In this document: positions 2,903 through 64,000 of the stretch, one piece after another
How positions within the stretch are numbered: the first letter of the stretch is position 1
How the letters are laid out: every line of letters starts with the position of its first letter
Origin: an uncultured Planctomycetales bacterium
GTDB lineage: Bacteria; Omnitrophota; Gorgyraeia; Gygaellales; Profunditerraquicolaceae
DNA length: 64,000 nt
Reading direction: 5' to 3'
Assembly (NCBI GenBank): GCA_964603585.1
Contig: CAZRVK010000004.1
Coordinates: forward strand, 64,438 to 128,437
Position numbers and translations under genes: made by a program
Notes under the pieces: model-generated
The model's input: the letters and a program-made list of their open reading frames with translations, nothing else
Database searches by the model: none
Told to the model about the DNA's origin: nothing

Positions 2903-2904
2903 AT

Positions 2905-13226: not shown

Positions 13227-13246
13227 GCATGGGAAGCGGGTGTTTA

Positions 13247-14044: not shown

Positions 14045-14097
14045 ACATTATGATATCGTGAAAAATTGCTGTCGTAAATGAAAAAGGATGGTTATGA

Positions 14098-15633: not shown

Positions 15634-15651
15634 GCTGCTTAGTACTTTATC

Positions 15652-17949: not shown

Positions 17950-19446
17950 TTGAATTTGGAATCTTACCGGACATTCATTAAAAATAATCGTAGCCTTTTG
18001 ATCGGTCATCTTTTGATTTATGCACAAGGGATCATTCTTATGCCCATAGTGATAAAGTCGGCTGGGGTGGTGGTTTATGGCGGATATATTTTACTTTCTG
18101 GTTTGGTCGGTTTTATCTTTGGGATCTCTTCTTTTGGAGTTGGGTTTAACTGCGGGCGTTTTCTCCCCGGGATCGAAGCCAGAGAAGAGAAGAGGGATAT
18201 TTTTTATCCCCAATTCTGGTTTCAATTCTTAATGCTTGTTATTTTGGCTTTGATCTTCGATCTTTTTTATCCAGGTTTGAACCGGTTTTTAATAAAGGGT
18301 GAATTTGTTTTTTCAAAATGGCTTGTATCTATCCTTCTGGTTTCGAATTTATTTTACAGTCAGGCAAGCAGCTACTTTTTATCTACTCATAGGATACATC
18401 ATTTTAACTTCGCAACTGTGGCGCTGCCGTACATCAATCTTTTCTTGATTTTGGCGATTTATTGGATCAAGAAAGACCTATCCTTGAATATGCTGTTTTT
18501 AACTCAGATAATTACCTATCTTCTGATTGGGATCCCGTTATCCGTATTACTTTTTCGCGAAATTGGGGTAAAGCTGATTTTGCCGGATCTTAAGCAGCTC
18601 AAGAATGATATGCGGCTTGGCATTCCTTTACGGCTTAATTTTATAATGGATGTTGTTTTATCCTTTAGTGACCGCTATGTAATAACCTATTTTTTAAGCG
18701 TAGCGGCAGTCGGTTATTATAACCCGGGTTATGCTATCGGCTCTTTGACCCTTTTTCTGCCACGGGTTTTGGGGGTTGTATTACTTCCGCTTTTATCTAA
18801 AGCCATTGACTCTCATAGGGAAAATGAGGCTTATAATATGTTAAGTTATGCGATTAAGGCTTTTCTCTTAGTATCTATCCCTTTTGTTTTTGGGTCTATT
18901 GTTTTGAGCGCTCCGCTATTGAATCTGTTTGCTAACGCCGAGGTTTCACAACGAGCCTATATGGTAACACCAATAATCGCATTAGCTACTCTTTTCTTTG
19001 GTTTGAATATTATTCTTTCCAATGTCCTGTGGGTTAGATTGAAAACAGCCATTATATTCAAGATGAATATGTTGGCGGCGCTCATTAATCTTATGCTTAA
19101 TCTTATTTTACTCAATCTGTTTCGTGATGTTAGAGTAGCCGCTCTTACTACCCTAATCAGTTATTTTATTGCATTTATTTTCATTTATAATGCCGTGATA
19201 AGAGTTTGGCCGATTCGCCTGCAATGGCAGGTTGTCGTAAAAATTGTCATTGCTGCGGTATTTATGTCGGGTTTTTTGTATGGGGTATCATTTTGCCCGG
19301 TTAAGAAAATATACAACCCCTGGTTTCTTCTGATAGAAATAATGGCCGCAATAATTGCATATCTTTTTGCGCTCGTTTTTCTTAAGGCTTTTTCCAGTAA
19401 GGAATTAAAGTATTTAAAGAACTCATTAGCCTTCGATCTTAGCTGA
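17950..19446 (+). CDS. Wzx-type oligosaccharide flippase (MOP superfamily)
   Basis: About 12 predicted TM helices throughout, with polysaccharide-biosynthesis-protein-like topology. TTG start as annotated by the track. Confidence 0.55.
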   Translation: MNLESYRTFIKNNRSLLIGHLLIYAQGIILMPIVIKSAGVVVYGGYILLSGLVGFIFGISSFGVGFNCGRFLPGIEAREEKRDIFYPQFWFQFLMLVILALIFDLFYPGLNRFLIKGEFVFSKWLVSILLVSNLFYSQASSYFLSTHRIHHFNFATVALPYINLFLILAIYWIKKDLSLNMLFLTQIITYLLIGIPLSVLLFREIGVKLILPDLKQLKNDMRLGIPLRLNFIMDVVLSFSDRYVITYFLSVAAVGYYNPGYAIGSLTLFLPRVLGVVLLPLLSKAIDSHRENEAYNMLSYAIKAFLLVSIPFVFGSIVLSAPLLNLFANAEVSQRAYMVTPIIALATLFFGLNIILSNVLWVRLKTAIIFKMNMLAALINLMLNLILLNLFRDVRVAALTTLISYFIAFIFIYNAVIRVWPIRLQWQVVVKIVIAAVFMSGFLYGVSFCPVKKIYNPWFLLIEIMAAIIAYLFALVFLKAFSSKELKYLKNSLAFDLS

Positions 19447-24397: not shown

Positions 24398-24418
24398 TAA
24401 ACAGGAGAGTCTGCGGTC

Positions 24419-25120: not shown

Positions 25121-25140
25121 CTAAATGGGATCATTATAAA

Positions 25141-25995: not shown

Positions 25996-26021
25996 ATGTT
26001 ATTCTAAACAGGAAATATTGT

Positions 26022-34301: not shown

Positions 34302-35852
34302 ATGGAACGGAAAGAAATCCTGCTTGTTAACGCAGTTAATCCCGGTGGACGGATCCAGGTCCCGGTAGGGTTAGTTTACCTTGCCAGCAATCTAAAGCGG
34401 CATGGCTATGACTGTGAGGTTTTTCATGTTATTGATTCATGTACGTTAGGTATCTGCCGGAATAAAATACTTTCTAATCGTTACCTTTTTGTTGGTTTTT
34501 CTTTTTGGATGGGGCCATCGGCTTTAGATCTTTTGACCCTTGCGGAAGCCGCTAAATCCCGGGGAATCCCAACGGTAGTGGGTGGTAAGTTTATCAGTAG
34601 TTTAAAAGCGGATGCAATGAAGGAAAATTCTATCGATATCGCAGGGATCGGGTATTGTGAAGATACGATTGTGCAGATCGCGGCGGCCTTATCGAACAAG
34701 GAAAAGCTTTCGAATATCCCGGGGATCATTTATCGTGATGATTCCAAAGGGATAATTACTGCGGCACAAAGAATTTGCACGGACAAGGATCTTGACCGGT
34801 TTGATTACGATCTTAGTTTTATAAAGGATTGGAGCCTGTATCTGCAAAGGGATCATAGCGGTCTGGTCCTTTTGGACCCTCTTGAAACACAGCGGGGGTG
34901 TTTATTTAATTGCAGTTTTTGTTTCCATAGCAAGGATGCGATTTACCGTGACGAAAACGGTAAAAAAAGTGTTTTGACGCATTCTGTGGATTATGTGATC
35001 GATAAGGCAAAGTATTTAAAGAGAATAACTGGTGTTAATAAGATCACTTTTTGTGATGATGAGTTCTGGATCGATGGCAAGCGTTCGCTTATGATCATGG
35101 AAAAGTTGAAACAAATAGGGATCGAGCTTCTATATATGCGTATCAGATTTTCGAGTATCGATAAGGATATGCTGAAAGAATTGAAGAGATTGAATGTCAA
35201 TTCGGTTGCCTGCGGGCTGGAATCCGGATCAAAACGCATCTTCAAATTAATGAATAAAGGGCAATCCTTCGAGACTATAGAAAAGAAACTAAAGACTTTA
35301 AACGATGAGAAAATGAAGGTAAATACTTCGATTATTCTGGGTAATCCGACCGAAACAAAGATGGAAGTGATTGAGAGTGTGAGGTATGCGCTTAGTTTAC
35401 GTAAAATTAATCCGAGTTTAAATATCGTTGCCTTTGTTTATGCTGCCTTGCCGGCAACGGTTTTTGGAGAATTAGCGGAACAGGAAGGATTCAGGAAACC
35501 AGACAGCATTAAGGGGTGGGTCATTGCCAGTGCCGAAAATCATGAAATCCTTCAGCAATGGTTGCCTTGGTATAATGAGAAAGAAAAGAAATTCATGAAA
35601 AGGCGGGATGATTATTTCAGTATCAATTCTTCCCTGGTAGAGATCTTGTATGGTTACCGGAAGCGGCCAGCCTATATGCGCCTGCTTACGCCTGTGTTTT
35701 ATTTGTTCGAACGAATAACATTTTATAGGCTATATTATTGGAATTTTTCCTTTCCTTTCGATGCGAAATTGTTTTTGCTGGCATCTTTGATTTTCCGCCG
35801 TTTACGCCTGCATTGGATGAGAGGAAAGTCTTCAATTCACAAACCGAGATGA
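34302..35852 (+). CDS. B12-binding-domain radical SAM enzyme, copy 3
   Basis: N-terminal B12-like domain (EILLVNAVNPGG..VGGKFISS) and TQRGCLFNCSFCFH. Confidence 0.7.
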   Translation: MERKEILLVNAVNPGGRIQVPVGLVYLASNLKRHGYDCEVFHVIDSCTLGICRNKILSNRYLFVGFSFWMGPSALDLLTLAEAAKSRGIPTVVGGKFISSLKADAMKENSIDIAGIGYCEDTIVQIAAALSNKEKLSNIPGIIYRDDSKGIITAAQRICTDKDLDRFDYDLSFIKDWSLYLQRDHSGLVLLDPLETQRGCLFNCSFCFHSKDAIYRDENGKKSVLTHSVDYVIDKAKYLKRITGVNKITFCDDEFWIDGKRSLMIMEKLKQIGIELLYMRIRFSSIDKDMLKELKRLNVNSVACGLESGSKRIFKLMNKGQSFETIEKKLKTLNDEKMKVNTSIILGNPTETKMEVIESVRYALSLRKINPSLNIVAFVYAALPATVFGELAEQEGFRKPDSIKGWVIASAENHEILQQWLPWYNEKEKKFMKRRDDYFSINSSLVEILYGYRKRPAYMRLLTPVFYLFERITFYRLYYWNFSFPFDAKLFLLASLIFRRLRLHWMRGKSSIHKPR

Positions 35853-40260: not shown

Positions 40261-41409
40261 ATGAAGGTATGTTTCCACATGTTTCCATATGATTTTTTAC
40301 TAAGAAACAAGTCGCGTTATTTTCTAGGATTCCTTTTAGCCGTTTTTTTTCTAATTTCTTTTCTAACCAAATATGCGGATTGGAAAATATATCGCTTAGA
40401 AGTTACTAATTCCGCCACAAATGATGGATTGAAGTATAAAAATATAGCCCAGCAGTTCTTAAGTGGAGAGGAACCTGCTGTTTATCTGAATAATTTCAGT
40501 TTAAGGCCGGCATTCATAATTTATTTAGCCGGTTTAATCGGGGTTTTTGGGTATAATTCTGATTTTATAATTTCCTTTATCAATATTGTTATAATTTCGT
40601 TTTTTTTGACTTTACTGGCATATGTTATTTTCAAAAAATACGGATTAAAAGGCTATTTATTGCCTTTTTCTGCAGCGGTTATACTTATCCTGGGTAATCC
40701 TTTGATATTGTTCTGGGCGCCTTTTATTTTGACTGAAATTCCGGCATTGAGCCTATTGATTTTGGGTTTTTGGATTTATTTCCGGGTGGATAATAAATTG
40801 AAATATTTGTTTTTGGGGATTGTCTATGCTTTGGCTTTTCAGGTAAGGGAAGTATCGGTTATCAATTTTTTGGCATTGCTTATAACCATGCTGATCACAA
40901 AAGAATCAAAATGGAATATTGCAATAACCATTTTTTTCTATTTTGCTGTGATTATTCCCTGGATAGTATATCTTTATGTGCATAACGTGGAATTGCCATT
41001 TTTAAGCCATTTAGGTCGTGCGATATCTGCCAGGGAAATCATTAATCATACTGGGGCAATGCCAGTTTTACCTCGATTCCTGACTAATATAGCAAAGCAT
41101 TACTACTTATATATCAGTGATAGCACTTCAATTGATACCCATGGATATTATTCGATTGCGTATACTTTCTTCATGTATCTTATGGGATGTATAGGATTAA
41201 GGCAACTTTCTTCCGGAACGGACAAAAAAGAATTCTATTTAATAGTTTTATCCTTGTTTTTAACTGCTATTTTCTATGGTTTTGTAGGGGAAAGCCCGTA
41301 TATGAGAGGGCGGGTTTTAGTGGAATATTTGCTAATCTATTCAGGGACAGTTGGTTTGATTTCTCTCTTGGAAGGTTTAAGGCAAAAACGCGGGCAAAAG
41401 CTATGTTAA
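40261..41409 (+). CDS. Polytopic membrane protein, possibly a GT-C-type glycosyltransferase (ArnT/PMT-like topology)
   Basis: About 10 TM helices and an early extracytoplasmic loop with acidic residues (LSGEEPAVYLNNFSLRP). No firm motif. Confidence 0.3.
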   Translation: MKVCFHMFPYDFLLRNKSRYFLGFLLAVFFLISFLTKYADWKIYRLEVTNSATNDGLKYKNIAQQFLSGEEPAVYLNNFSLRPAFIIYLAGLIGVFGYNSDFIISFINIVIISFFLTLLAYVIFKKYGLKGYLLPFSAAVILILGNPLILFWAPFILTEIPALSLLILGFWIYFRVDNKLKYLFLGIVYALAFQVREVSVINFLALLITMLITKESKWNIAITIFFYFAVIIPWIVYLYVHNVELPFLSHLGRAISAREIINHTGAMPVLPRFLTNIAKHYYLYISDSTSIDTHGYYSIAYTFFMYLMGCIGLRQLSSGTDKKEFYLIVLSLFLTAIFYGFVGESPYMRGRVLVEYLLIYSGTVGLISLLEGLRQKRGQKLC

Positions 41410-42824
41410 AAGCTTTACTCATTAATCCTGTAAGATTCAATATGATAAAACCACCGGTCCCGGAAAGTGTAAATGACCCTAAAGAAGCGGGGTATTATCC
41501 TCCGATAGGCCTGCTTTATATCGCGTCGATGGCAGAAAATGTTTCTGGATGCTCGGTTAAGGTTTTAGATGCCGATGCAGAACAATTCAATTATCTCCAA
41601 ATCGAAGAATTTATCAGCAAGGAATCCCCTGATATCGTCGGTATCCAAACAATGACCTATACTTTGATTGATTCTTTAGAAACTGCCAGGATAGCAAAAA
41701 AGGTCGATAAAAATATCCACGTTTGCCTGGGAGGTCCGCATATCAGCATTTATCCCGAAGAAACATTGAGATTTCCGCAGGTTGATTCGGTGATTCAGGG
41801 TGAAGGAGAATATGTGTTCGCTGATCTGCTGGATGCGATCATCAAAAACAAGGATTTATCTTTAGTCCCGGGGATTATATTTAAGAAAAACGGCCGTATA
41901 ACCTCAACTGGTTATCGGGGTTTAATCGAAGATATTGATTCTTTACCATTCCCTGCGCGCCACTTGGTTTCGATGAATAAGTATTGGTCGATTTTATCAG
42001 GTTCATCTGGCGTTACTACTATTATTACCAGCCGCGGCTGTCCTTTTAATTGTATTTTTTGTGAACGGCCTCATTTGGGTAAGAAATTTCGTTTTCGTTC
42101 AGCAGGCAATGTGGTTGACGAGTTGCAGCAGTCTTATGAAAATGAGGTCAGGTCATTTATTTTTTATGACGACACTTTTACTCTTAATAAAAACCGGGTA
42201 TATGATATTTGTGATGAGATACTAAAACGCAGGCTTAAAATTGATTGGAGCATTCGTGCACGAGTAGATTCGATAGACAAGGCAATGCTGGCTAAATTGA
42301 AATCTGCCGGGTGCCGGACTATTAATTTTGGAGTAGAATCCGGTAATCCGCAGATCCTTAAGGCCTTACGTAAAGATATCAACATTGAACAGATAAGAAA
42401 TGCTTTTTCCTGGTCGAGAGAACTTGGGATAAAAACATTGGCGTATTTTATGATCGGTAATCCTACAGAAAGCAAAGAACAAATAATGGAAACAATTGCC
42501 TTTGCCAAGGATTTATCTCCGGATTATATCAATGTAAGCCTTACTACTCCTTTTCCTGGAACTGATCTATATAAGCTGGGTATGGAAACTGGTTTATTCA
42601 AGTCAGATTATTGGGCAGAGTTTGCGCGTAACCCTGTGAAAGGGTTTTCGCCCAGGCTTTGGGAAGAAAAGCTTAGTTCGGAAGAACTTCATGATTTGCT
42701 CGCGTATGCTTATAAAAGCTTCTATTCCCAGCCGCGCCTGCTTTTACGGCAACTTTTGTCAGTCAGAGATCCAAGAGATTTAGTTAGGAAGATAAAAATG
42801 GGAATGAGGCTAATATTAAAGTGA
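41403..42824 (+). CDS. B12-binding-domain radical SAM enzyme, copy 4
   Basis: B12 domain (LKALLINP..IGLLYIAS..CLGGPHISIYPEE) and TSRGCPFNCIFCERP. Start at ATG 41403, an ATGTTAA overlap with the upstream stop; the track start at 41187 is rejected. Confidence 0.7.
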   Translation: MLKALLINPVRFNMIKPPVPESVNDPKEAGYYPPIGLLYIASMAENVSGCSVKVLDADAEQFNYLQIEEFISKESPDIVGIQTMTYTLIDSLETARIAKKVDKNIHVCLGGPHISIYPEETLRFPQVDSVIQGEGEYVFADLLDAIIKNKDLSLVPGIIFKKNGRITSTGYRGLIEDIDSLPFPARHLVSMNKYWSILSGSSGVTTIITSRGCPFNCIFCERPHLGKKFRFRSAGNVVDELQQSYENEVRSFIFYDDTFTLNKNRVYDICDEILKRRLKIDWSIRARVDSIDKAMLAKLKSAGCRTINFGVESGNPQILKALRKDINIEQIRNAFSWSRELGIKTLAYFMIGNPTESKEQIMETIAFAKDLSPDYINVSLTTPFPGTDLYKLGMETGLFKSDYWAEFARNPVKGFSPRLWEEKLSSEELHDLLAYAYKSFYSQPRLLLRQLLSVRDPRDLVRKIKMGMRLILK

Positions 42825-48789: not shown

Positions 48790-49440
48790 TTGAATCAATT
48801 ACTGGATTCCAAAAGAAATTATGAATGGCTGAAGAGGGTTTTTGACCTGGTTTTTGCGTCTTTTTTGATCATTGTTCTTTCCCCTTTTTTCTTGCTAATT
48901 TGTTTTTTGGTATGGGTAGAAGTTGGTACCCCTGTATTTTTTAGGCAGCTTCGTCCCGGTAAAGATGAGAGACCGTTTACAATTATCAAATTCCGGACTA
49001 TGACCAATGCACGCAATAAAGATGGATTTTTGCTTGCGGAAACAGAAAGGCTTCGGCCTTTAGGGCGTTTTTTGCGGAAATTTAGCCTTGACGAACTCCC
49101 TGAATTGCTAAATGTTCTTATGGGACAGATGAGTTTTGTCGGCCCTCGCCCATTACTTATGCAATATTTGGGGTATTATACTCCTTTACAGGCCAGGCGG
49201 CATGCTGTTAAACCCGGTATTACAGGATGGGCACAAATTCATGGGCGTAATAATACTCCGTTCAGTAAAAGGTTTGAGATGGATGTTTGGTATGTGGATA
49301 ATCGTTCGTTTCCCCTGGATCTGAAAATACTCATTCTTACTATTATTAAGGTCTTTAAACGTGAAGGGGTTAGGGATGATCTTGGGTATTGTTATAAACA
49401 GGTTAATGATTGCGGCTTGCCAAATGATATTATAGAATAA
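48790..49440 (+). CDS. Small polyprenyl-phosphate hexose-1-phosphate transferase (bacterial sugar transferase family, PglC/WbaP C-domain type): the initiating phosphoglycosyltransferase
   Basis: Single N-terminal TM, then PVFFRQLRPGKDERPFTIIKFRTM and DELPELLNVLMGQMSFVGPRP. TTG start as in the track. Confidence 0.8.
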   Translation: MNQLLDSKRNYEWLKRVFDLVFASFLIIVLSPFFLLICFLVWVEVGTPVFFRQLRPGKDERPFTIIKFRTMTNARNKDGFLLAETERLRPLGRFLRKFSLDELPELLNVLMGQMSFVGPRPLLMQYLGYYTPLQARRHAVKPGITGWAQIHGRNNTPFSKRFEMDVWYVDNRSFPLDLKILILTIIKVFKREGVRDDLGYCYKQVNDCGLPNDIIE

Positions 49441-53366: not shown

Positions 53367-54518
53367 ATGTTAAAACGGATCTTACTTTCTCCTCCCCATA
53401 TGGGCACAGAGGAAATGAAATTCATCCGGGAGGCGTTTAAAAGCAACTATATTGTTCCTCTTGGTCCGCAAGTAGATGCTTTTGAAAAAGAAGTGGCCGA
53501 ATATATTGGGATACCATATACCTTGGCGCTTTCTAGCGGGACCGCTGCTATTCATTTGGCAATGCGTCTTCTGGGCGTAGGAATAAACGATGAAGTGATT
53601 GCTTCCACTTTGACTTTTATCGGTAGCGTTACGCCGGCGGTTTTTCAAGGAGCTAAACTTACCTTTGTGGATTGTGATCGTGTTTCCTGGAACATTTCCG
53701 CTGACCTTCTTGAAACCGCACTTAAAGATTCCAGAAATTGCGGAAGGACTGTTAAGGCGGTCATCCCAACCGATTTATATGGACAGTGTGCGGATTACAG
53801 AAAGATACTGGCAGTTTCTAAAAAGTACGGTGTTCCGGTGGTGATAGATGCGGCCGAAGCGATGGGGGCACGATATCATAATGTTCATGCTGGTGTCGGG
53901 GGAGATGCCGCGGTATTTTCGTTCAACGGGAACAAGATCATTACTACCTCTGGGGGAGGGATACTCGCTTCAAAGGATAAAGATTTCATTGAACATGCAC
54001 GTAAACTTTCTCAACAAGCACGCGAAGCATTCCCTTACTATGAACATTCAGAAATAGGATATAACTATCGATTAAGTAATATTTTAGCCGCGATTGGTCG
54101 CGGACAACTAAGGGTACTAAATAGACGGTTAAAGAGAAAAAAAGAAATTTTCGATTATTATAAAAAGTCGCTGTCGGGCTTGCCTGGGATCGAGTTCATT
54201 CCCGAATCACCTTATGGTGAATCTAATCATTGGTTAACAGTTATCCTGATTACCAAAGAAAGTTTTGGGGTTGATCGGGAAACACTGCGACTGGCCTTGG
54301 AAAAGGCAAATGTGGAATCACGCCCGGTTTGGAAACCGATGCATCTGCAACCAGTGTTTCAGGGAAAAAGCCGGGTGTTTGGCGGCGAAGTGGCAGAAGA
54401 CCTGTTTTGCAGGGGTTTATGCCTGCCTTCGGGAACCGCATTGACGAATGCCGATCTAAACCGCATAATCGACATAATCGTGCAATGTCACCGGCATCAT
54501 CGAGAATGCAGTTATTAG
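53367..54518 (+). CDS. DegT/DnrJ/EryC1/StrS-family sugar aminotransferase (PglE/PseC/WbpE-like)
   Basis: PPHMGTEEMKFIREAF, ALSSGTAAIHLAM, DAAEAMG, FSFNGNKIITTSGGG (PLP Lys). Confidence 0.85.
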   Translation: MLKRILLSPPHMGTEEMKFIREAFKSNYIVPLGPQVDAFEKEVAEYIGIPYTLALSSGTAAIHLAMRLLGVGINDEVIASTLTFIGSVTPAVFQGAKLTFVDCDRVSWNISADLLETALKDSRNCGRTVKAVIPTDLYGQCADYRKILAVSKKYGVPVVIDAAEAMGARYHNVHAGVGGDAAVFSFNGNKIITTSGGGILASKDKDFIEHARKLSQQAREAFPYYEHSEIGYNYRLSNILAAIGRGQLRVLNRRLKRKKEIFDYYKKSLSGLPGIEFIPESPYGESNHWLTVILITKESFGVDRETLRLALEKANVESRPVWKPMHLQPVFQGKSRVFGGEVAEDLFCRGLCLPSGTALTNADLNRIIDIIVQCHRHHRECSY

Positions 54519-54528: not shown

Positions 54529-56364
54529 ATGAAAACAGTCTACAAAATGCTTGTTTTAAAATATCGCCGTGTTTTGATTATTTTAACTAATTTATGTTTG
54601 GTTTCATTTTCCTATTATGTCAGTTTTTTGCTGCGCTTCGATTCTAATCTTCCGAACGATTATTTTAAGATCTTTCTTAAAACCCTGCCTTTATTGATTA
54701 TCGTTAAAATCGTAGTTTTTTATTATTTTGGTTTATTCCGCGGTCTTTGGAGATATGTAAGTATATATGATCTGTGGCAGATAATAAAGGCCAATTTACT
54801 CGCCACAAGTGTTTTTATTCTTATCAATGTTTTTTCTTACGGGACACATATCGTCCCACGGTTTATAATCCTGAATGATTTCATTATCTGCACATCTTTC
54901 ATAGGCGGAATACGTTTCTTAACCCGACTGATACGAGAGCGATATAACCGTCCTCTTATTCAAAACGAACAGATTAATGTCCTTATTGTGGGTGCCGGTG
55001 AAGCCGGAATATTACTTTTAAAAGAATACCGTAATAATCCTGCTTTGGGGGAAGTAGTGGGTTTTATCGATGATGATAAAGTAAAATATAATGAATCCAT
55101 TAATGGTGTAAAGATCTTAGGGGATAGGAAATCGATTTCAAAGGTTGCCAGGGATTATAATGTCAAGGAAATCATCTTAGCAATTCCTTCGGCAAACGGG
55201 ATCATCATCAGGGATTTGATTACATATTGCCAGGTCCCTAATGTCAAGTTAAAGATAATCCCGGGAATGTCTAAGATCTTGAGCGGAGAACTCGAAATAG
55301 GCTTGAGAGAAGTAAGACCAGAGGATCTTTTAGGCAGGGAAACGGTTAATATTAACGAAAGTGAAATAGGCGGGTATTTGAAGGAAAAGGTGATTTTAGT
55401 TACTGGCGCCGCTGGTTCTATTGGTTCCGAATTATGCCGTCAGATCGCAATATTTTCTCCAAAAGCGATCATTTTGATCGATCATAATGAAAATAACCTC
55501 TATTTTTTGAATATAGAACTTAGAGCCAGATTTAAGAGATTGCAGATAAGATTGGTCATTGGTGATATTAATGATATAGGTTTATTAAAAGAGGTTTTTT
55601 CCACCTATAGACCACAGGTAGTTTTCCATGCGGCGGCATATAAACATGTTCCTCTTATGGAGGAAAACCCGATTGCCGCCTTCAAAAATAACGTTTTAGG
55701 AAGTAGATCCTTGATTTATGCCTCGCATCACTATAATGTAGAGAAGTTTGTTTTAATTTCGACTGATAAAGCAGTTAACCCGATCAATATCATGGGAATA
55801 AGTAAAAGATTTGCTGAAATGTTTCTACAGGCAAAGTCAAAGCGAAGCAGAACCAAATTTATGGCTGTTCGTTTCGGCAATGTTTTAGGGTCTGATGGCA
55901 GTGTTGTCCCATTATTTAAAAAACAGATCGATGCCGGCGGGCCGATAACTATAACTCATCCGGAGACAACCCGCTATTTTATGAGTATAAAAGAAGCTGT
56001 TTTGTTGGTCCTTCAAGCCGGTGCGATCGGAAACGGGGGAGAAATATTCATTTTGGATATGGGGGAGCAAATAAAAATAGTGGATTTAGCCAGGAATTTA
56101 GTAACATTATCCGGGTTGGAGTTAGGCAAGGATATTATGGTAGAATATATAGGCTTACGCCCTGGAGAGAAAATCCGAGAGGAGTTATTGCTGGATAAAG
56201 ATAGAGATAAAATCACGAAACATGATAAGATTTATATCAGCAAAGCGGATGATTTTGATCTGCAAATGCTAAGGCAGCAAATTAAAGAACTTAAGAAAAT
56301 AGCTTCCCTAAAAGATGCCCCGGCCATTGTCCAAAAAATGAAGGAGATTATTGCCCCAAAATGA
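54529..56364 (+). CDS. Membrane-anchored UDP-N-acetylhexosamine 4,6-dehydratase (PglF/CapD/WbpM family)
   Basis: Four N-terminal TM helices, then VILVTGAAGSIGSELCRQ, VFHAAAYKHVPLME, GTTRYFMSIKEAVLLVLQA. Confidence 0.85.
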   Translation: MKTVYKMLVLKYRRVLIILTNLCLVSFSYYVSFLLRFDSNLPNDYFKIFLKTLPLLIIVKIVVFYYFGLFRGLWRYVSIYDLWQIIKANLLATSVFILINVFSYGTHIVPRFIILNDFIICTSFIGGIRFLTRLIRERYNRPLIQNEQINVLIVGAGEAGILLLKEYRNNPALGEVVGFIDDDKVKYNESINGVKILGDRKSISKVARDYNVKEIILAIPSANGIIIRDLITYCQVPNVKLKIIPGMSKILSGELEIGLREVRPEDLLGRETVNINESEIGGYLKEKVILVTGAAGSIGSELCRQIAIFSPKAIILIDHNENNLYFLNIELRARFKRLQIRLVIGDINDIGLLKEVFSTYRPQVVFHAAAYKHVPLMEENPIAAFKNNVLGSRSLIYASHHYNVEKFVLISTDKAVNPINIMGISKRFAEMFLQAKSKRSRTKFMAVRFGNVLGSDGSVVPLFKKQIDAGGPITITHPETTRYFMSIKEAVLLVLQAGAIGNGGEIFILDMGEQIKIVDLARNLVTLSGLELGKDIMVEYIGLRPGEKIREELLLDKDRDKITKHDKIYISKADDFDLQMLRQQIKELKKIASLKDAPAIVQKMKEIIAPK

Positions 56365-57599
56365 TATCCGGGATAACTAAAGCTCTTAATTTCCTGCTAT
56401 TGCTTGATTTTTCTTTTTTCCTTGTGATTGCCCCGTATTCCAAGATAGCCGTTAAAATTGTTTTATATGTCGCATTGTTCCTTGGAACGCTGCTAATTAT
56501 AATGAATTCTTACGGGGTTTTTTACAAAAAGGATACGATTTGCAGGGAATTCTTTAGAGGCTTTATCCCCAGGAACCCTGTAAGCAAGGCTACCTTGTTC
56601 TTTTTGTCCATTGCCTTGGTTGCGGCAGGGACAAGCATTAATTTTCTGCACAGTCAGCGTATTTTTTTCGAACGTTATCTCCCATATTTGCTGTTTTTTG
56701 CCTTTGGGGTTTATTCGGCTAAATCCCGGAATGTCCCTTTTATACTGACGGTTATCTTCTTTATTAATATCATTGTTTTCAGCCTGGGGATATCGATCGA
56801 TCATTTGAAATCGCCAGATATTCGGATTTCTACTTCCTTTGGCCGTTCATTGAATTTATCAAATTACTTGATCCTGGCGGCTCCTTTCAGCTCAATAGTT
56901 TTTGTTTTTACAAAGAGCCGTATTTTGCGGATCTGTGGGTTTTTTACTGCTTTTTTATCTTCGATCTCTTTAATCTGGATTGAATCCAGAGCTGGGTGGT
57001 TAGCTGTACCGATCGCAACTTTGCTTGTTTGTTTCCGCCGTAATATCAAAGCCGGTTTCCTTCTTACGGTGATCCTGGTTGTTGCCGCTAATTTCCTCGG
57101 ACCGGTATATAAAATCCGTGCATTAACAACCTTTGATGTTTCCAGTTGGAGCCGAATTGAGTTATATGAGACAGCGTTGCGAATATTTAAAAGTTACCCT
57201 GTATTAGGTTCTGGTCCAGGGATGTATGAGAAACTTGTAAATAGTGTAGAATTTCGGCCGATTAATGGATATTTGGGGCAGGTGGTTCATCCCCATGCCC
57301 ATAATACTTATTTAGAAATTCTTTCGGAAATGGGGATTGTGGGCTTAATTGGTTTTTCGAGTATTTTTATTGCTTTCTTTAGTTTTTTGTTCAAATCTAA
57401 GAAAATTTGGGATGAAACAGTGGGTGAACAAAGCGTTTTACTGATTGGGATATCCGGATCAATTTTGGCAACGTTGATCTTTGCTTTGGCGTCGACGATT
57501 ATCACAGTGGGAATGCAGGATGCCCCAGTTTTTTGGTTCCTGTTTGGGATTGCCAGCGGGTTATTGCCACCGTTTTTTATTGATAAGCGTTCCGTTTAG
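56361..57599 (+). CDS. Wzy_C-domain protein: O-antigen ligase (WaaL) family, which also includes PglL-type O-oligosaccharyltransferases
   Basis: Multi-TM with the Wzy_C signature loop HPHAHNTYLEILSEMGIVGLIGF. Confidence 0.6.
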   Translation: MISGITKALNFLLLLDFSFFLVIAPYSKIAVKIVLYVALFLGTLLIIMNSYGVFYKKDTICREFFRGFIPRNPVSKATLFFLSIALVAAGTSINFLHSQRIFFERYLPYLLFFAFGVYSAKSRNVPFILTVIFFINIIVFSLGISIDHLKSPDIRISTSFGRSLNLSNYLILAAPFSSIVFVFTKSRILRICGFFTAFLSSISLIWIESRAGWLAVPIATLLVCFRRNIKAGFLLTVILVVAANFLGPVYKIRALTTFDVSSWSRIELYETALRIFKSYPVLGSGPGMYEKLVNSVEFRPINGYLGQVVHPHAHNTYLEILSEMGIVGLIGFSSIFIAFFSFLFKSKKIWDETVGEQSVLLIGISGSILATLIFALASTIITVGMQDAPVFWFLFGIASGLLPPFFIDKRSV

Positions 57600-57629: not shown

Positions 57630-59906
57630 ATGATAAGGGAAATAATGCAATCGAATAAAAGGCGGCTTGAGCCGCCTTTTTTGCTCGTTGCCGGGATTAC
57701 CGGCTTTGCTGGTGTCGTGGCCCAGGTTTTGCTTTTACGTGAGATGTTAGTCAGTTTCTTAGGCAATGAATTTATCTGGAGCTTGATCTTGGCAAATTGG
57801 GTGATCTTAGAAGCCGCAGGGGTTTTTATCTTTGGAAAGATCATCGATGACAGGCGAAATTACGCCAATTTGTTCATTACCTTGCAAATGATGTTTTCAC
57901 TATTCTTGCTGTTTTCCATTTTCCTTACCCGATCATTTAAGAGTGTTTTGGGATTCGGTTTTGGTGAAAATATCGGGCTACTCCTTGTTTTCCTTTCATC
58001 ATTACTGCTGATTTTTCCGGTTAGTTTTTGCCATGGAGCTTTGTTTAGTTTGCTCTGTAAAATGGCGGATAACGTCGAGAAAGTTTATGCCTGGGAAATT
58101 ATCGGAAGCGCATGCTCCGGCATCCTAGTTACCTTTCTTTTTGTCCCGTATTTTTCCTGCTTTGAGATCGCTTTTGGGGTAGCATTCATAAATTTTGCTT
58201 TATGTTTTTTCTTTTTTTTTCAGGTTAGAAGTTTCTTGAAATACGTGTTCCTGTTTTCTTTGTTTTTCTTGATCGTGTTTTCTTCTTTTGGAGGGACCAA
58301 GATCTTGGAGGATGTTTCTTTAGAACAACGCTGGGGCAGCCAACAAGTCCTGGAATCTCAAAGCTCCGTTTACGGGGACATTACAGTTACTACCCGGAAC
58401 AAGCAATTAACTGTTTTTTATAATGGGACACCGAGTATTTTATCACCATATCCGGATATGGCTTTTATCCAGGATTTTGTGCATCTGCCACTGCTTTTTC
58501 AGGTTAATCCAAAACGGCTGCTTGTATTAGGTTCAGGAGCAGGGGGGGTGATCCATGAAGCCTTAAAGCATCCTTTACAGCGAATTGATTATGCGGAACT
58601 TGACCCTTTAATCCTGAAAGTCCTCAAGAAGCATGCGTCTGCGCTGATTAACAAGGAATTAAATGATCCGAGGGTTAAAATCAGCAATATTGATGGGCAT
58701 AGATTTTTAAGAAAGACTAACGATGAATATGACGTGATTTTGATCGGTTTGTCCAGACCTGCAGACCTTTCCTCAAATCGTTTCTTCACCCAGGATTTCT
58801 TTGTAATAGCAAAGCGGCATCTTTCGAAAAATGGAATTTTAGCTTTTACTCTGCCGGGATCGCCAACTTATATTGGCACGGATCTAAGAGACCTTAATGC
58901 CTGTATTTTGGCAGGACTTAGGAATGTGTTTGCCTTTATCAAGGTTATTCCTGGGGGATACAATTTGTTTTTAGCTTCGGATCATCGCGGGATCATGGAA
59001 CTCACGCCGGATTCGATATTACACCGGCTTGAGCAGCGGGAAGTCCGTACTGATATCATAAGCTTGAATTACTTGAAACATCGTCTGGATAGTGAAAAAC
59101 AATTATGGTTTTTGAAGTCCCTCAAGGATCATACGAAAAAAATAAATAGGGATTTCGAGCCTTTCGCGGTTTTTATAAACGTTTTGATTTGGAATAGGAA
59201 GATGGGCGGTATGTTGGTGGAAGTTCTGGAGATAGCTAAAACCATAAAACCCGGTATAATCGCTTGGTTCTTAATTCTGCTTACTACAGGGTTTATTTTG
59301 GGGTGGCGTAAGAAACCAGATAGATTGAGATTAGGTATCGTTTATTGTATTTTTACCACGGGATTTTTCGGGATGCTGACAAATATAGTCTTGATATTTG
59401 TTTTTCAGGTTTTTTACGGAGTTATTTATTCCCATATCGGACTGCTTATCAGCAGCTTTATGGCAGGCGTTGCCATGGGAAGTTTTTGGATCAATCGTTT
59501 TGCCAACGCTTATAAGAATGATATGCGTCTATTCATCAGTCTTGAATACGGGGTAGTGATATCTATTTCAATTTTGACTTTCGTCTTGTTTCAGGCAGAT
59601 AAATCGCTGATTGGTTCATTTTGGTTTATTATTCCGGCTATTTTTATCCCAGGGGTACTGGTTGGCACGGAGTTTGCTTTATCCAGCCGAATATTCTTGC
59701 AAAACAACCAAAGAATTGGCCAGACGGTCGGATTGCTTTATAGCGCGGATCTATCTGGTACTTGGCTGGCTGGGATTATCGGGGGAGTGATTTTTCTGCC
59801 GGTTTTGGGTTTTTTTTATACATGTTTGTTAACAGTTATGTTAAAATTAAGCAGCTTGTTGATCTTGATTATTTTTAAATATAGGGGAGCAGTTGCACAA
59901 CAATAA
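57630..59906 (+). CDS. Polytopic membrane protein fused to a spermidine-synthase-like (aminopropyltransferase fold) domain
   Basis: N-terminal ~7 TM, central RLLVLGSGAGGVIHEALKHPLQRIDYAELDP...YDVILIGLSRPADLSSNRFFTQDFF (spermidine synthase-like SAM-fold), and C-terminal ~6 TM. Confidence 0.55.
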   Translation: MIREIMQSNKRRLEPPFLLVAGITGFAGVVAQVLLLREMLVSFLGNEFIWSLILANWVILEAAGVFIFGKIIDDRRNYANLFITLQMMFSLFLLFSIFLTRSFKSVLGFGFGENIGLLLVFLSSLLLIFPVSFCHGALFSLLCKMADNVEKVYAWEIIGSACSGILVTFLFVPYFSCFEIAFGVAFINFALCFFFFFQVRSFLKYVFLFSLFFLIVFSSFGGTKILEDVSLEQRWGSQQVLESQSSVYGDITVTTRNKQLTVFYNGTPSILSPYPDMAFIQDFVHLPLLFQVNPKRLLVLGSGAGGVIHEALKHPLQRIDYAELDPLILKVLKKHASALINKELNDPRVKISNIDGHRFLRKTNDEYDVILIGLSRPADLSSNRFFTQDFFVIAKRHLSKNGILAFTLPGSPTYIGTDLRDLNACILAGLRNVFAFIKVIPGGYNLFLASDHRGIMELTPDSILHRLEQREVRTDIISLNYLKHRLDSEKQLWFLKSLKDHTKKINRDFEPFAVFINVLIWNRKMGGMLVEVLEIAKTIKPGIIAWFLILLTTGFILGWRKKPDRLRLGIVYCIFTTGFFGMLTNIVLIFVFQVFYGVIYSHIGLLISSFMAGVAMGSFWINRFANAYKNDMRLFISLEYGVVISISILTFVLFQADKSLIGSFWFIIPAIFIPGVLVGTEFALSSRIFLQNNQRIGQTVGLLYSADLSGTWLAGIIGGVIFLPVLGFFYTCLLTVMLKLSSLLILIIFKYRGAVAQQ

Positions 59907-59917: not shown

Positions 59918-61480
59918 ATGAAGACTTCGGTCGCAGTGGTTGGTGCCGGAAGATGGGGCAGTAATTTAGTGCGGAATTTTGCTGAATTAGGAATATTACG
60001 GACGATTTGTGATCTGGACCGGGAACTTTTATCAGGGTTTTTAAGCAAATATCCTAAAGTTGCCCTGACCGATTCTTATACAAATGTGTTGCAGGATAGA
60101 TCTATCGCGGGGGTAGTCATTGCCACTCCATCGGTTAAACATTATGAGATGGCTTTATCAGCGTTGATAGCAGGGAAACATGTTTTTGTAGAGAAACCAA
60201 TGTCTTTGGATGTATTGCAGGCGAAGGAATTGATCCTTTTGGCTGAAAAGAAAAAACTGGTATTGATGGTAGGGCATTTATTAGAATATCATCCCGCGGT
60301 AATTAAATTAAAGAAAATAATAGATTCTGGCGGTTTAGGCAAGATCAACTATATTTATTCTAACCGGCTTAATCTGGGTAAGGTGCGCAAGGAAGAAAAT
60401 ATTTTATGGAGTTTTGCCCCGCATGATATTTCAGTAGTGCGTATGCTTCTGGAAGAAGATCCAGTAGAAGTCACTGCGGTAGGCGCAAATTATTTAAGCC
60501 CGCAGCTATCAGATATTACGATCTCAACTTTAAGTTTTAAAAACGGGGTCAAGGCGCACATCTTTGTTAGTTGGCTGCATCCTTTCAAAGAACAAAGGCT
60601 GGTAGTAGTTGGGGACAAAAAAATGGCTGTTTTTGAAGATAGCGCAAAGGATAAATTAAAAATTTATGATCAAAGGTTTGTATGGAAGAACCGTGTCCCT
60701 GTCGCGCATACGAAAGGGCAGAAAGTAATAAGATTTGATTCGCGCGAACCTTTAAGGCTGGAATGCCTGCATTTTATAAAATGCATCCGCCAAGAGATCA
60801 CTCCAAAGACTGATGGTAAGAGTGGCCTGAAAGTCTTGGAAGTATTAAAAGCTTGCCAAAAATCATTGGAGAATAGAGGTACACCGGTAAGTTTATCGGA
60901 GTTAGTTCAAGATAAAGATTATTTTGTGCATCCAACGGCAATAGTCGATGATTTTTGTAAAATAGGTCAGGGGTGCAAAATTTGGCATTATTCGCATATT
61001 ATGCGTGGGGCATCCATTGGCCGAAATTGTTCGATAGGCCAAAATGTATATGTTGGATCAAAAGCGGTAATCGGCAATAATGTAAAAATACAAAACAACG
61101 TATCTATTTATGATGGTTTGGTTATAGAAGATAATGTTTTTTGCGGGCCATCCGCAGTTTTTACAAACGTTTTTACTCCCCGGAGTTTCATCGATAGACG
61201 GAATAAATTCCAACTGACGCGTCTATGTACGGGATCTTCCATAGGGGCAAATGCCACAGTGGTTTGTGGCAATAATATCGGCGCTTATGCCCTGGTCGGT
61301 GCTTCTGCTGTGGTTACAAAAAACATCCCTGACTATGCCCTGGTTTATGGCAATCCAGCAAGGATAAAAGGCTGGGTTTGCCAATGCGGGAATAAGTTGC
61401 GGTTTGTAAAGAAATCAGCAACTTGTAACGCATGTGGCAGGCATTATAAAAAAACCTCGAAGCAAGTAAGGATGATATGA
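59918..61480 (+). CDS. Bifunctional fusion of a Gfo/Idh/MocA NAD-dependent sugar oxidoreductase (WbpB-like) and a hexapeptide-repeat N-acetyltransferase (WbpD/PglD-like), with a C-terminal Cys4 zinc ribbon
   Basis: N-terminus SVAVVGAGRWGSNLVRNF...HVFVEKPM. C-terminus left-handed beta-helix repeats (IGQGCKIWHYSHIMRGASIGRNCSIGQNVYVGSKAVIGNNVKIQNNVSIYDG). Tail CQCGNK...CNACGRHY. Confidence 0.7.
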   Translation: MKTSVAVVGAGRWGSNLVRNFAELGILRTICDLDRELLSGFLSKYPKVALTDSYTNVLQDRSIAGVVIATPSVKHYEMALSALIAGKHVFVEKPMSLDVLQAKELILLAEKKKLVLMVGHLLEYHPAVIKLKKIIDSGGLGKINYIYSNRLNLGKVRKEENILWSFAPHDISVVRMLLEEDPVEVTAVGANYLSPQLSDITISTLSFKNGVKAHIFVSWLHPFKEQRLVVVGDKKMAVFEDSAKDKLKIYDQRFVWKNRVPVAHTKGQKVIRFDSREPLRLECLHFIKCIRQEITPKTDGKSGLKVLEVLKACQKSLENRGTPVSLSELVQDKDYFVHPTAIVDDFCKIGQGCKIWHYSHIMRGASIGRNCSIGQNVYVGSKAVIGNNVKIQNNVSIYDGLVIEDNVFCGPSAVFTNVFTPRSFIDRRNKFQLTRLCTGSSIGANATVVCGNNIGAYALVGASAVVTKNIPDYALVYGNPARIKGWVCQCGNKLRFVKKSATCNACGRHYKKTSKQVRMI

Positions 61481-61504: not shown

Positions 61505-61533
61505 TGCATTCTTAGAATGCAAACCTTTATTTT
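61505..61533 (+). terminator. Weak hairpin plus T-rich tract downstream of the fusion gene (possible attenuating terminator)
   Basis: tgcattc-tta-gaatgca (7 bp stem) followed by aacctttatttt. Confidence 0.2.
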
Positions 61534-61536: not shown

Positions 61537-64000
61537 ATGTTCCTGACTGCCTTTAAAAGAAAGATCCTTGTGTTTGCTCTAATCGCACTTTTGTCGTGCG
61601 GTATCGGAGTTTATTTTAGGTTGTATCCGATCTTGGGCAAGAATGAGCAAAAAGCCAGGAATATTGCTCAAAAAAAAGTTTATACCTATCTGAAAAATAA
61701 AATAGCCGTTGAGTTTGAAGCAAAATCAGGATACCTGTCAAAACTGCAAAAAACGCGGTTGGTGAATCAAAATTTCCGAAAAATGCTTAGAAGTAATCAT
61801 TCGCAAATAGAATCTATGATTACTGAAGGGAAACAACAGCTTTTAGGTTATGATCCGGATTGGGCTGGATCTTTTCTGCTTGATGGTGATTCTTATTTTT
61901 ACTACAGCCAGACTGAAAGCCTTTGGCATACTAAAAACGTTAAGGAAACGGGAGTCATTTTCGATTCACTCCACCCCTATACCGGGTTTTATCTGCATAA
62001 GATCATATCATTTTTTACTCCGGAAGCATCGGTATTCCACTCAATCCAATATCCCGGTATTATTCTTTCTGTCCTGGCAACCTTATTGTTTATAATTGCT
62101 TGTTATCTGCTTGAGATTTCTCCAGTTGTTACTTTTACCGCCAGCATTTTCTTTTGCTTGTCCGCTTTCTTTACGCAAAAGACAACTTTTGCCTGTTATG
62201 ATACTGATGTATATAATGTGCTATTTCCGGCTGCGATATCCCTTTTTATCTATATTTTCCTAAAAAATTTAAGGCAGAAATCAATAGTTATTGTATCTGC
62301 TGTATGCGCATCTTTTTTGACTGTGGCATATAAAATATTCTGGTCAGGCGGAGGGTATTTTTTTCTGATCATTATTTTATCCGCGCCTTTTTTTTTGTTA
62401 TTGGACCGTAAGCTCAATAATTCTGGTCATACTAAAGCAATATTTACATTCCTGGCCGTATATTTTCTACTCCCATTGATCGGCGCAAGTCTGTTAGGGC
62501 ATAGAATTAATCCTGTGAATATGCTTATTGAAGGAGGGAGTAAACTTGCCCAGTATCATTATTCTACAAATGGTGTCTGGCCGAATATGCTTTTAACAGT
62601 CGCAGAAACTCAACCGTCAACCATCGCTGGATCTGCCTTTCTGCTTTTGGGAAACAAATTACTGTTTTATCTGGCTTGCCTTGGCTGTATAATTTATTTC
62701 CTTCGCTCATTGCGTTCGAAAAACCTGTTTTTAAGCTTTTGCAGTTTATCCGTATTCTTATGGATCGCCTGTATTTCTTTTGTTTCTTTTCGATCATTGC
62801 GTTTTTTGGTCCTTTTGACGTTTCCCATATCGATCTCCTTTACTATGTTCCTGCAATGCCTGTTTATATTTTTGCAGCAAAGGATAAACGGCGGTTTAAA
62901 GATCCGATCTGCTAAGGCAGGTTTTTTTAAAAAAGCGATCCCTGCGGTTATTTTGATATCAGGGATCATTTTACCGCTAAATACTGCAGACAGGTATTTC
63001 TTAAACATACATCCTTTTTTTAACCGGCCTTGGGATGCCGTGCTTTTAAAGATCAAACAAATGACTCCTGGCGATTCTATTATCAATTCATGGTGGTCTC
63101 CGGGCTATCTTGTTTCAGCAGTTGCAAAAAGAAATGTTGTCCTAAATGGAGGGACACAAGGATCTTCGCGGAATTACTGGATGGCAAGGGTTTTTTTGTC
63201 CGATGATGAGAAAACCGCTATAGGATTACTCCGGATGATTGATTTATCCGGAGAGGGGGTAATATATATATTGCGGGATACCTGCGGGATGACTCTTTCA
63301 GAGGCGATTGATTTCACAAAACAGCTTGTTGTCCTGGACAGGCAGTCTGCACGGAAAATCCTGGTATCCCGGGAATTAAAAGAAAAAGACATTGATTTAA
63401 TCCTGAATATGCTGTACCAGAACCCAAAACCGGCATATTTCCTGGTTTATGATGATTTACTAAACGAGTTTTTTACGCTTTCCTATATCGCAAACTGGAG
63501 TTTTAGTGCGATTAATAACAATAAATCAATGGATACGCGTGGTTTCGGTAATAATATAACCGGTATGGTCAAATGTATGATTAAAAGTGACAGCGGTTCC
63601 GTATCCTGCAGCCCGGAGATTAAAGAGGTGTCTCGAGTAGGGGATATTATCGGCTTTGAAAATAATTTTTATTTTAACGTGAGAACGAAAGAAAGTTTTT
63701 TGCTTGATCCTTTAAATAATAATTATGCTCGTATTCAGAGTTTATTTTTTATAGAAAATGGCGAGTTAAGGGAAATCATTTGTGGCCAGGACAATACCAT
63801 ACCTTTTTCCGTGTTAGTTATTGAAAAAGCAGGATCCTACTATTGCATTTTTTTTGATCGTGCTTTTATAAAAACCTTGCTTTTTAAATTGCTTTATCTG
63901 GACGGAAAAGACTTAATCTATTTTACCCCATGGATCACTGAAACAGATCCGATTTCCAGAAAAACAGTGCGTGTTTATAAGATTAACTGGGGACCGCAAA
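61537..64000 (+). CDS. STT3/PglB/AglB-like oligosaccharyltransferase homolog (5' part; the ORF runs off the window end and is absent from the ORF track because it has no stop)
   Basis: Frame-1 ATG at 61537 with no in-frame stop to position 64000 (at least 821 aa). N-terminal polytopic domain with DGDSYFYY in the first extracytoplasmic loop and CYDTDVYN (compare the PglB DxD region YDTDM). Then a soluble domain beginning INSWWSPGYLVS (compare WWDYG). Confidence 0.5.
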   Translation, partial: MFLTAFKRKILVFALIALLSCGIGVYFRLYPILGKNEQKARNIAQKKVYTYLKNKIAVEFEAKSGYLSKLQKTRLVNQNFRKMLRSNHSQIESMITEGKQQLLGYDPDWAGSFLLDGDSYFYYSQTESLWHTKNVKETGVIFDSLHPYTGFYLHKIISFFTPEASVFHSIQYPGIILSVLATLLFIIACYLLEISPVVTFTASIFFCLSAFFTQKTTFACYDTDVYNVLFPAAISLFIYIFLKNLRQKSIVIVSAVCASFLTVAYKIFWSGGGYFFLIIILSAPFFLLLDRKLNNSGHTKAIFTFLAVYFLLPLIGASLLGHRINPVNMLIEGGSKLAQYHYSTNGVWPNMLLTVAETQPSTIAGSAFLLLGNKLLFYLACLGCIIYFLRSLRSKNLFLSFCSLSVFLWIACISFVSFRSLRFLVLLTFPISISFTMFLQCLFIFLQQRINGGLKIRSAKAGFFKKAIPAVILISGIILPLNTADRYFLNIHPFFNRPWDAVLLKIKQMTPGDSIINSWWSPGYLVSAVAKRNVVLNGGTQGSSRNYWMARVFLSDDEKTAIGLLRMIDLSGEGVIYILRDTCGMTLSEAIDFTKQLVVLDRQSARKILVSRELKEKDIDLILNMLYQNPKPAYFLVYDDLLNEFFTLSYIANWSFSAINNNKSMDTRGFGNNITGMVKCMIKSDSGSVSCSPEIKEVSRVGDIIGFENNFYFNVRTKESFLLDPLNNNYARIQSLFFIENGELREIICGQDNTIPFSVLVIEKAGSYYCIFFDRAFIKTLLFKLLYLDGKDLIYFTPWITETDPISRKTVRVYKINWGPQ

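Follow-up and report, generated by a model that had tools for sequence, protein, structure and literature searches.

An STT3/AglB-type oligosaccharyltransferase homologue of uncultured bacteria with conserved catalytic residues and a predicted non-canonical acceptor site

The stretch analysed here, 64,000 nucleotides of contig CAZRVK010000004.1 from an uncultured Planctomycetales bacterium (hereafter the window), ends with a long open reading frame (ORF) that stands last in a 60-kb glycan island, and it raises the question of what kind of glycosyl transfer this gene serves and on which acceptor. The original prediction took the product for a PglB-like oligosaccharyltransferase (OST) of a bacterial N-glycosylation system. 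The results pointed instead to an STT3/AglB-type OST homologue that is predicted to be catalytically competent and in which the pocket for the +2 Ser/Thr of the acceptor appears dismantled. The preferred reading, an active OST with a non-canonical acceptor rule that probably serves a secretion or pilus apparatus, was given a probability of about 0.55.

The frame runs from the ATG at 61537 to base 63999 of the forward strand through 821 sense codons with zero stops, as the original prediction had it, and the frame-1 stop that had been named as a possible objection is absent from 61537-63999. No rival ORF of comparable size overlapping these positions was found. By comparison with its relatives the STT3-like protein is essentially complete and not badly truncated, because homologues of 830-849 amino acids (aa) terminate 0-2 residues past the last codon of the 64-kb window. 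The three landmarks first picked out (LDGDSYFYY, CYDTDVYN, and WWSPGY) lie in order at the places given for them, and the proposed layout of about 500 aa of transmembrane (TM) helices followed by a soluble domain agreed with an AlphaFold2 (AF2) model showing roughly 490 aa of TM region and then a soluble domain.

Membership of the STT3/AglB/PglB superfamily (CAZy GT66; PF02516/PF21436) is secure on the evidence of sequence profiles and predicted fold. The single Pfam match was STT3-PglB_core PF21436 (24.4 bits against a gathering score of 23, aa 515-567), so that the lack of any significant STT3/PglB hit, which had been foreseen as fatal to the proposal, did not arise. A precomputed PF02516 match was present in all of the first homologues, a set of eight relatives obtained by word-indexed search. 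The only NCBIfam match, to the archaeal STT3 model TIGR04154, was sub-threshold, and membership of that subfamily was ruled out with a score of 28.5, far under the cutoff of 450. Membership of ArnT or PMT was likewise rejected, since sequence hidden Markov models put the protein in STT3. A single-sequence search of the PDB gave human STT3A at E=0.003, with HMMER pairing WWSPGY with WWDYGY, and a profile of the eight first homologues gave A. fulgidus AglB at 3.4e-19, STT3A at ~1e-16, and C. lari PglB at 2e-9. The AF2 model (110-sequence alignment; pLDDT 92, pTM 0.92) had the GT-C fold, with an N-terminal multi-pass TM domain and a C-terminal mixed alpha/beta core (CC) domain, and Foldseek ranked PglB 5OGL at the top (7e-18, TMt 0.67), followed by STT3A and AglB. 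The expected OST fold, C-terminal core included, was therefore recovered with PglB as the best structural match. The label PglB-like did not survive the sequence comparison, in which the gene product is nearer AglB/STT3 and not PglB-type, its nearest canonical relatives being DPANN-archaeal. Nor is the bare superfamily annotation new, because public pipelines already assign the name 'STT3 domain-containing protein', or an automated OST name, to close homologues.

Conservation was counted in a 110-sequence family alignment and, clade by clade, in 91 members carrying WWxPG against 77 members of the canonical sister clade. Invariant in the 110-sequence alignment were D118, D224, W269, P349, E357, R422, W499, W519, W520, and G523. 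D118 of the first external loop (EL1) was found in 110/110 sequences (90/91 WWxPG and 77/77 sister-clade members) and aligned to the DP[YW] motif of AglB and STT3A, and D222 of the second acidic motif in 87/91 and 77/77. In EL5, W348, P349, and E357 were conserved or invariant, and the flanking positions 350, 353, and 356 differed between the clades. The EL1 Asp, the DxD motif, and the Glu of the SVSE/TIXE type (E357 in TVAE) were all invariant or nearly so; the two acidic motifs first proposed are conserved and not chance look-alikes, and the EL5 Glu named for checking is in place. R422 of the TM domain would, by analogy with PglB, bind the lipid-pyrophosphate donor, and R532 and D537/G538 were strongly conserved beside the WW pair and G523. 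The simplest reading is a catalytically competent enzyme whose predicted glycosyl-transfer chemistry is under strong selection, because the catalytic and metal-binding residues are invariant across ~170 divergent sequences (mean within-clade identity 32%). The same invariance speaks against an OST-derived protein that has no catalytic activity and would serve a secretion or pilus machine as a structural or scaffolding subunit; the loss of the signature WWD Asp and the tight linkage to a multiprotein machine, both described below, would suit such a subunit, which was nevertheless judged extremely improbable.

The Trp-Trp-Asp of WWDYG and the second signature residue of a DK (DxxKxxx[M/I]) or MI (MxxIxxx[I/V/W]) motif together form the +2 Ser/Thr pocket, and WWDxG with a DK/MI-type pocket is regarded as universal in the OSTs of the three domains of life (PMC3703281). 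This pocket accounts for the use of N-x-S/T everywhere in N-glycosylation. The window protein departs from it at both signatures, and its whole clade thereby stands apart from every characterised N-OST. At the first, Ser521, followed by Pro, stands where canonical enzymes have the Asp that forms a hydrogen bond to the +2 Ser/Thr; the WW pair and the Gly are kept. Position 521 was P67/S12/C6/A4/T2 among the WWxPG members (Asp in 0/91) against Asp in 77/77 of the sister clade, and position 522 was Pro in 90/91 against Phe in 73/77; WWSPGY is accordingly not the plain WWDYG counterpart for which it had been taken. At the second, D640, M641, K644, V647, W648, H650, and F651 were each present in 77/77 sister-clade sequences, and K644, V647, W648, H650, and F651 were invariant in that clade only. 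Position 644 in the WWxPG clade was K26/N23/Q18/S8/D6, and positions 647, 648, and 650 were either changed or variable there. In the window protein the residues are S521, P522, E644, T647, L648, and Y650, and the equivalent helix reads L641-x-x-E644-x-x-x-L648; neither a DK motif nor the C-terminal MI motif that had been listed for inspection is present. The AF2 model showed a strand at 633-638 and then a helix that breaks at 644, which matches the kink expected here. A total of 29 positions invariant in the canonical clade were not kept in the WWxPG clade, 10 of them in the WWD motif or kinked helix and 3 in EL5 next to the catalytic Glu. With the WWD Asp lost and the DK-type Lys degenerate, the pocket therefore appears dismantled and a D/E-x-N-x-S/T acceptor sequon unlikely; a plain N-x-S/T rule seems doubtful too. 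For a result of computation alone, the case for an altered acceptor site is unusually clean, and the proposal is directly testable, with the donor, the acceptor, and the chemistry still putative.

Two other explanations meet this evidence directly. Canonical bacterial N-glycosylation, in which a PglB-like enzyme would transfer the island glycan to Asn in D/E-x-N-x-S/T or N-x-S/T of many periplasmic proteins, accords with the OST fold, the complete catalytic set, and the PglC/E/F-like genes upstream; W519/W520 are kept, and Ser521 could donate a hydrogen bond. It was considered unlikely, given a sequence nearer AglB/STT3 than PglB, an Asp gone clade-wide and mostly exchanged for Pro, which is incapable of hydrogen-bonding, a degenerate second signature residue (Glu here) with the MI motif absent, and a pgl-like neighbourhood that is not conserved in relatives. 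The other explanation is a GT-C transferase that has come to act on something other than protein (cell-envelope glycan, lipid, or peptidoglycan), in the manner of ArnT, PMT-like enzymes, or Aft; this would explain the loss of a peptide pocket. It was rated improbable: the full AglB-type periplasmic core, the WW pair, G523, R532, and D537/G538 are strongly conserved, the homology lies inside STT3/AglB and not in other GT-C families, and the EL5 Glu and EL1 Asp, which activate the Asn amide, are invariant.

How far the altered site extends was followed through the family. An exhaustive profile search returned 5,475 cluster representatives at E<=1e-3, of which 1,479 reached E<=1e-30, and the best 150 were all full length. 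The 156 family sequences compared were the top matches of this search together with the first eight homologues. WW[P/S/C/A/T]PG was carried by 83/156 of them, 777-902 aa long and with the window protein counted in this group, and canonical WWD[F/Y/W]G by 73/156, 865-1231 aa long; one further sequence had no recognisable WWxxG motif. The median length was 838 aa in the WWxPG clade against 1024 aa in the archaeal canonical clade, the latter with long N-terminal extensions. The size of the WWxPG clade is a lower bound (at least 83 clusters at 50% identity). Its labelled loci came from Candidatus Omnitrophota metagenome-assembled genomes (MAGs) and from MAGs labelled Planctomycetales or Planctomycetia, in keeping with the original prediction of a lineage other than Campylobacterota and deltaproteobacteria, and the labelled canonical loci came mostly from DPANN archaea (Nanobdellota, Woesearchaeota, Nanoarchaeota).

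In the neighbour-joining tree, all 92 non-Asp sequences formed one clade with zero Asp-bearing members inside. Bootstrapping (100 replicates, 75 taxa, with distances capped for very divergent pairs) supported the WWxPG clade at 98%, the WWDFG clade at 100%, and the two together, with Nanobdella/Nanopusillus AglB excluded, at 96%. The 98% bootstrap support for monophyly of the WWxPG clade indicates a single pocket-loss event, and the simplest reading of the alignments is one rebuilding of the acceptor-recognition site at the root of this clade, with the chemistry kept. The window protein grouped with its closest homologue P0001 and with P0021, P0002, and P0010 (all 34-42% identical). P0002 and P0010 are labelled Omnitrophota, and the window therefore probably derives from that phylum or one closely related to it. 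No relative above ~43% identity was found in the genome and metagenome scans. Two bacterial genes from MAGs labelled Planctomycetales and Omnitrophota (L008, 9908-12457, and L012, 540-3143, respectively) keep WWDYG and fall outside both main clades; they may represent the state preceding pocket loss. Bacterial STT3 homologues were concluded to derive from at least two archaea-to-bacteria transfers (Lombard, PMC4973528), a pattern that the WWxPG clade fits.

Among relatives the gene has a conserved neighbour. A type II secretion system (T2SS)/pilus-like operon adjoined the STT3-like gene in 12/12 WWxPG loci with flanks, comprising GspE (with MshEN and PilZ), GspF, a GspG-like major pseudopilin, N-methyl minor pilins, GspJ, GspK, a PilM-PilN fusion, a PilO-like protein, and usually a TPR protein. 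In L001-L007 and L018-L021 the STT3-like gene and the operon, whose order is TPR-PilO-PilMN-GspK-J-G-F-E, lie tail-to-tail. L009 is arranged differently: there the STT3-like gene points the same way as the operon and is embedded in it, with the TPR gene on one side and a small secreted ORF, GspK, and an S41 peptidase on the other. The adjoining ORF there, of 110 aa, encodes a signal-peptide protein and was rejected as a prepilin. This adjacency holds across STT3-like proteins just 22-30% identical, and no T2SS/pilus neighbour was found in the canonical-motif loci (L008, L010-L015, L022-L024, L026-L028, L030), among which the bacterial L008 gene sits between queA and tgt/trmD. We infer that such an operon lies downstream in the window's own genome as well. 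The island, which had first been offered as the context of the system, is not conserved beside the gene in relatives, and this operon is.

Two further features of these loci were recorded. A periplasmic serine peptidase (S41 with PDZ, or trypsin-like) stands next to the STT3-like gene in three distant WWxPG loci (L021 5900-7117, L019 6264-6989, L009 14104-15255) and may belong to the same module. The linked GspE-type ATPase has an N-terminal MshEN and a C-terminal PilZ domain (L018 18097-20256, L019 17860-19554, L021 16312-18525), which suggests that the linked secretion/pilus machine is under c-di-GMP control.

Were the enzyme a general-purpose OST with an altered sequon and no functional tie to the T2SS or pilus, this adjacency would be gene order inherited within a lineage of conserved synteny. 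The ATP-synthase genes keep their place beside the T2SS operon just as well, and the other flank of the STT3-like gene is variable, the window having a glycan island attached there instead. Against it stand the retention of the adjacency at such low identity and, on the same strand, through the L009 rearrangement into the operon, as well as its absence from every canonical-motif relative, including the bacterial L008. This alternative was regarded as distinctly unlikely.

Under the preferred reading of an active OST tied to the apparatus, the enzyme would be a single-subunit GT-C OST of the STT3/AglB lineage with a 13-helix-type TM domain, a periplasm-facing active site, and an AglB-like core. 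A lipid-pyrophosphate-linked glycan would be assembled on the cytoplasmic face, with the PglC-like enzyme of the island initiating, and elaborated by the island glycosyltransferases, nonulosonic acid (NulO) enzymes, and radical S-adenosylmethionine (radical-SAM) enzymes. The Wzx-like protein would flip it to the periplasmic face, where the STT3-like enzyme, by analogy with its solved relatives, would transfer the polyprenyl-pyrophosphate-linked glycan en bloc to a periplasmic or secreted protein, presumably to Asn. The acceptor would be picked by a determinant other than the +2 Ser/Thr. The likeliest acceptors would be pseudopilins, or else further parts or cargo of the machine encoded next to the gene, as archaeal AglB acts on pilins and archaellins. 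A broader statement was put forward tentatively: the WWxPG enzymes may form a phylum-scale bacterial clade (Omnitrophota and relatives) that shares ancestry with DPANN enzymes, has lost the pocket with catalysis kept, and acts as a dedicated T2SS/pilus glycosylation module.

Several observations weigh against the preferred reading. The mapping of the DK/MI helix rests on sequence spacing and a predicted kink. Both Trp are kept, Ser occupies 521 here, and Lys is found at 644 in 26/91 clade members; partial Ser/Thr recognition could survive. Both Trp of the PglB motif, according to what Lizak et al. reportedly described in 2011, likewise hydrogen-bond the +2 hydroxyl. No T2SS genes were found in the 61.5 kb upstream of the gene, and the window stops at its 3' end. 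Part of the conserved order, which the ATP-synthase genes share, may be inherited and not functional coupling. In the GspG-like major pseudopilins of 10 loci only generic GspG motifs were seen, with no conserved N-x-S/T or new Asn motif, and no acceptor is nominated because of this. Across the 12 WWxPG loci, none of the distinctive island genes was found next to the STT3-like gene, the only matches being generic epimerases and GT2 enzymes, and the adjacent Wzy_C protein could be the real end-user of the island glycan.

Table 1. Motifs of the STT3-like protein and genes of the glycan island in the window.
Feature	Position	Strand	Remarks
Wzx/MurJ-type flippase	17950..19446	+	Family match
PglC-like polyprenyl-phosphate phosphoglycosyltransferase (small)	48790..49440	+	PF02397 E=4.9e-64; TIGR03025
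DegT/PglE-like, LegC/PseC-type aminotransferase	53367-54518	+	Pfam/NCBIfam family match
Polysacc_synt_2/PglF-like membrane UDP-GlcNAc 4,6-dehydratase	54529-56364	+	Pfam/NCBIfam family match
Wzy_C-family membrane protein (O-antigen ligase, polymerase or PglL-type O-OTase)	56361..57599	+	PF04932 E=3.7e-21; weak TIGR03097 match
758-aa membrane spermidine-synthase-like protein	57630-59906	+	N-terminal multi-pass region; PF01564; weak 'fused MFS/spermidine synthase' match
Fusion of WbpB-like UDP-GlcNAc 3-dehydrogenase-like protein (GFO/IDH/MocA) and C-terminal NeuD/PglD-family hexapeptide acetyltransferase	59918..61480	+	Immediately upstream of the STT3-like gene
STT3/AglB-type GT-C oligosaccharyltransferase homologue, WWxPG clade	61537..64000	+	821 codons; stop codon predicted just past window end
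EL1 motif LLDGDSYFYY, aa 114-123	61876..61905	+	D118 (61888-61890), EL1 catalytic/metal-site Asp
CYDTDVYN, aa 220-227, second acidic (DxD) motif D222-x-D224	62194..62217	+	Aligns to SYDNE of STT3A
EL5 motif WPNMLLTVAE, SVSE/TIXE equivalent	62578..62607	+	E357, catalytic Glu
R422, invariant TM-domain Arg	62800..62802	+	91/91 and 77/77
WWSPGY, aa 519-524, in place of WWDxG	63091..63108	+	Aligned to WWDYGY of STT3A
Beta-strand and kinked helix AYFLVYDDLLNEFFTLSYIANW, DK/MI motif position	63433..63498	+	E644 (63466-63468), neither Lys nor Ile

All ORFs of at least 120 aa with a family assignment lie on the forward strand across window 1-64000, and the GC skew is positive throughout with a monotonic rise of the cumulative skew, which fits a long leading-strand block of co-oriented genes. 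The glycan island occupies it from ~8.5 kb onward with large forward-strand ORFs, the STT3-like gene coming last after a 56-nt gap (Table 1). This gap holds a 7-bp palindrome (TGCATTC-tta-GAATGCA) with a T-rich run after it (61505-61521, +); the hairpin is weak (z=-1.28, site counts near chance) and uninformative on co-transcription. As candidates for the donor steps, the PglC-like transferase would start the lipid-linked glycan and the Wzx/MurJ-type flippase would carry it to the periplasmic face. The aminotransferase and the dehydratase together would make a diamino-trideoxyhexose or a NulO precursor. The original prediction had placed the STT3-like gene directly after PglC-, PglE-, PglF-, and PglD-like genes; the families hold, with the PglD-like part being the C-terminal half of a fusion, but the Wzy_C and spermidine-synthase-like genes intervene. 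No counterpart of the latter was found near the STT3-like gene in relatives' loci.

The description of the locus as rich in NulO and radical-SAM genes was upheld by two NeuB genes and four B12-radical-SAM genes, all co-directional. The four B12-binding radical-SAM enzymes and one SPASM radical-SAM enzyme occur with SAM methyltransferases (13223-17040, 34302-35852, 41187-42824, +), which suggests unusual C-methylation or other radical tailoring of sugars. The two sets of NeuB and CMP-transferase genes (10660-12214 and 22230-26690, +) imply two NulO pathways. The second set is followed by a HisF-like/HisH-like pair (25141-26690), which, as with genes of the WbuY/WbuZ type, points to acetamidino modification. 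Methyltransferases, GT2 and GT4 glycosyltransferases, and an MBOAT protein complete the island. An ORF without Pfam match (40261-41409) and the B12-radical-SAM ORF at 41187-42824 overlap by ~220 nt on the forward strand, and the second ORF probably begins downstream of its listed start. Upstream of the island, tandem GalT/HIT-family paralogues (galactose-1-phosphate uridylyltransferase-like; 1877-3900, +) stand just before GAPDH. The PglC/D/E/F-like locus of this window was conserved in 0/12 of the relatives' loci. Glycan genes also occur on the non-operon flank in L018, L003, and L019, but they are different ones, and radical-SAM-type genes similar to those of the island stand next to the STT3-like gene in L018.

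In the literature, no description was found of an STT3 homologue in Omnitrophota or Planctomycetes, of the WWxPG variant, or of a T2SS linkage, and two genomics papers on Omnitrophota treat T2SS-like loci without mention of this STT3-like gene. If the broader statement on a dedicated T2SS/pilus module is true, no earlier STT3-family enzyme would have had a sequon rule other than N-x-S/T, whether Asn is glycosylated independently of any sequon, the +2 determinant differs, or another residue serves as acceptor; it would also be the first bacterial N-OST-type system for pilin or pseudopilin glycosylation. STT3-type protein glycosylation would be extended to a phylum for which it has not been described and whose members are predatory or parasitic and in part associated with archaea, and would be tied to a secretion/pilus apparatus thought central to that lifestyle. 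The WWxPG clade would offer a natural experiment on OST substrate choice, with catalysis kept and the acceptor site rebuilt, and a possible source of enzymes with new acceptor specificity for bacterial glycoengineering. Even if the conventional N-glycosylation explanation is true, a further bacterial N-OST lineage independent of PglB would be at hand.

Among known systems, the eukaryotic STT3A/STT3B enzymes are multisubunit, with WWDYG, a DK motif, and a dolichol-pyrophosphate donor, none of which features was shown for the window protein. The O-OTases PglL/PilO/TfpO (Wzy_C family), which act on type IV pilins, are analogous in proposed role, with en bloc transfer to pilin-like proteins near variable glycan loci, and a Wzy_C gene stands two genes upstream in the window; the analogy is functional only, as their fold and family are unrelated and the STT3-like protein is without a Wzy_C domain. 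Archaeal AglB (A. fulgidus AglB-L, PDB 3WAJ/7E9S; DPANN WWDFGH clade) showed the highest sequence affinity to the window protein. It differs in host, the WWxPG hosts being bacterial by their Gsp/Pil operon, F-type ATP synthase, and MAG labels, and it keeps a Lys- or Ile-type Ser/Thr pocket, whereas both the WWD Asp and the Lys-type pocket are gone from the WWxPG clade, which also has none of the long N-terminal extensions seen in the archaeal one. Campylobacter PglB (PDB 3RCE/5OGL) is much weaker in sequence similarity (2e-9) than AglB/STT3 and has the MI motif and the WWD Asp, neither of which the WWxPG protein has. The two belong to different clades, WWxPG being a bacterial STT3-family lineage separate from PglB, and where PglB is partnered by the pgl locus, the conserved partner of the WWxPG genes is the T2SS-like operon.

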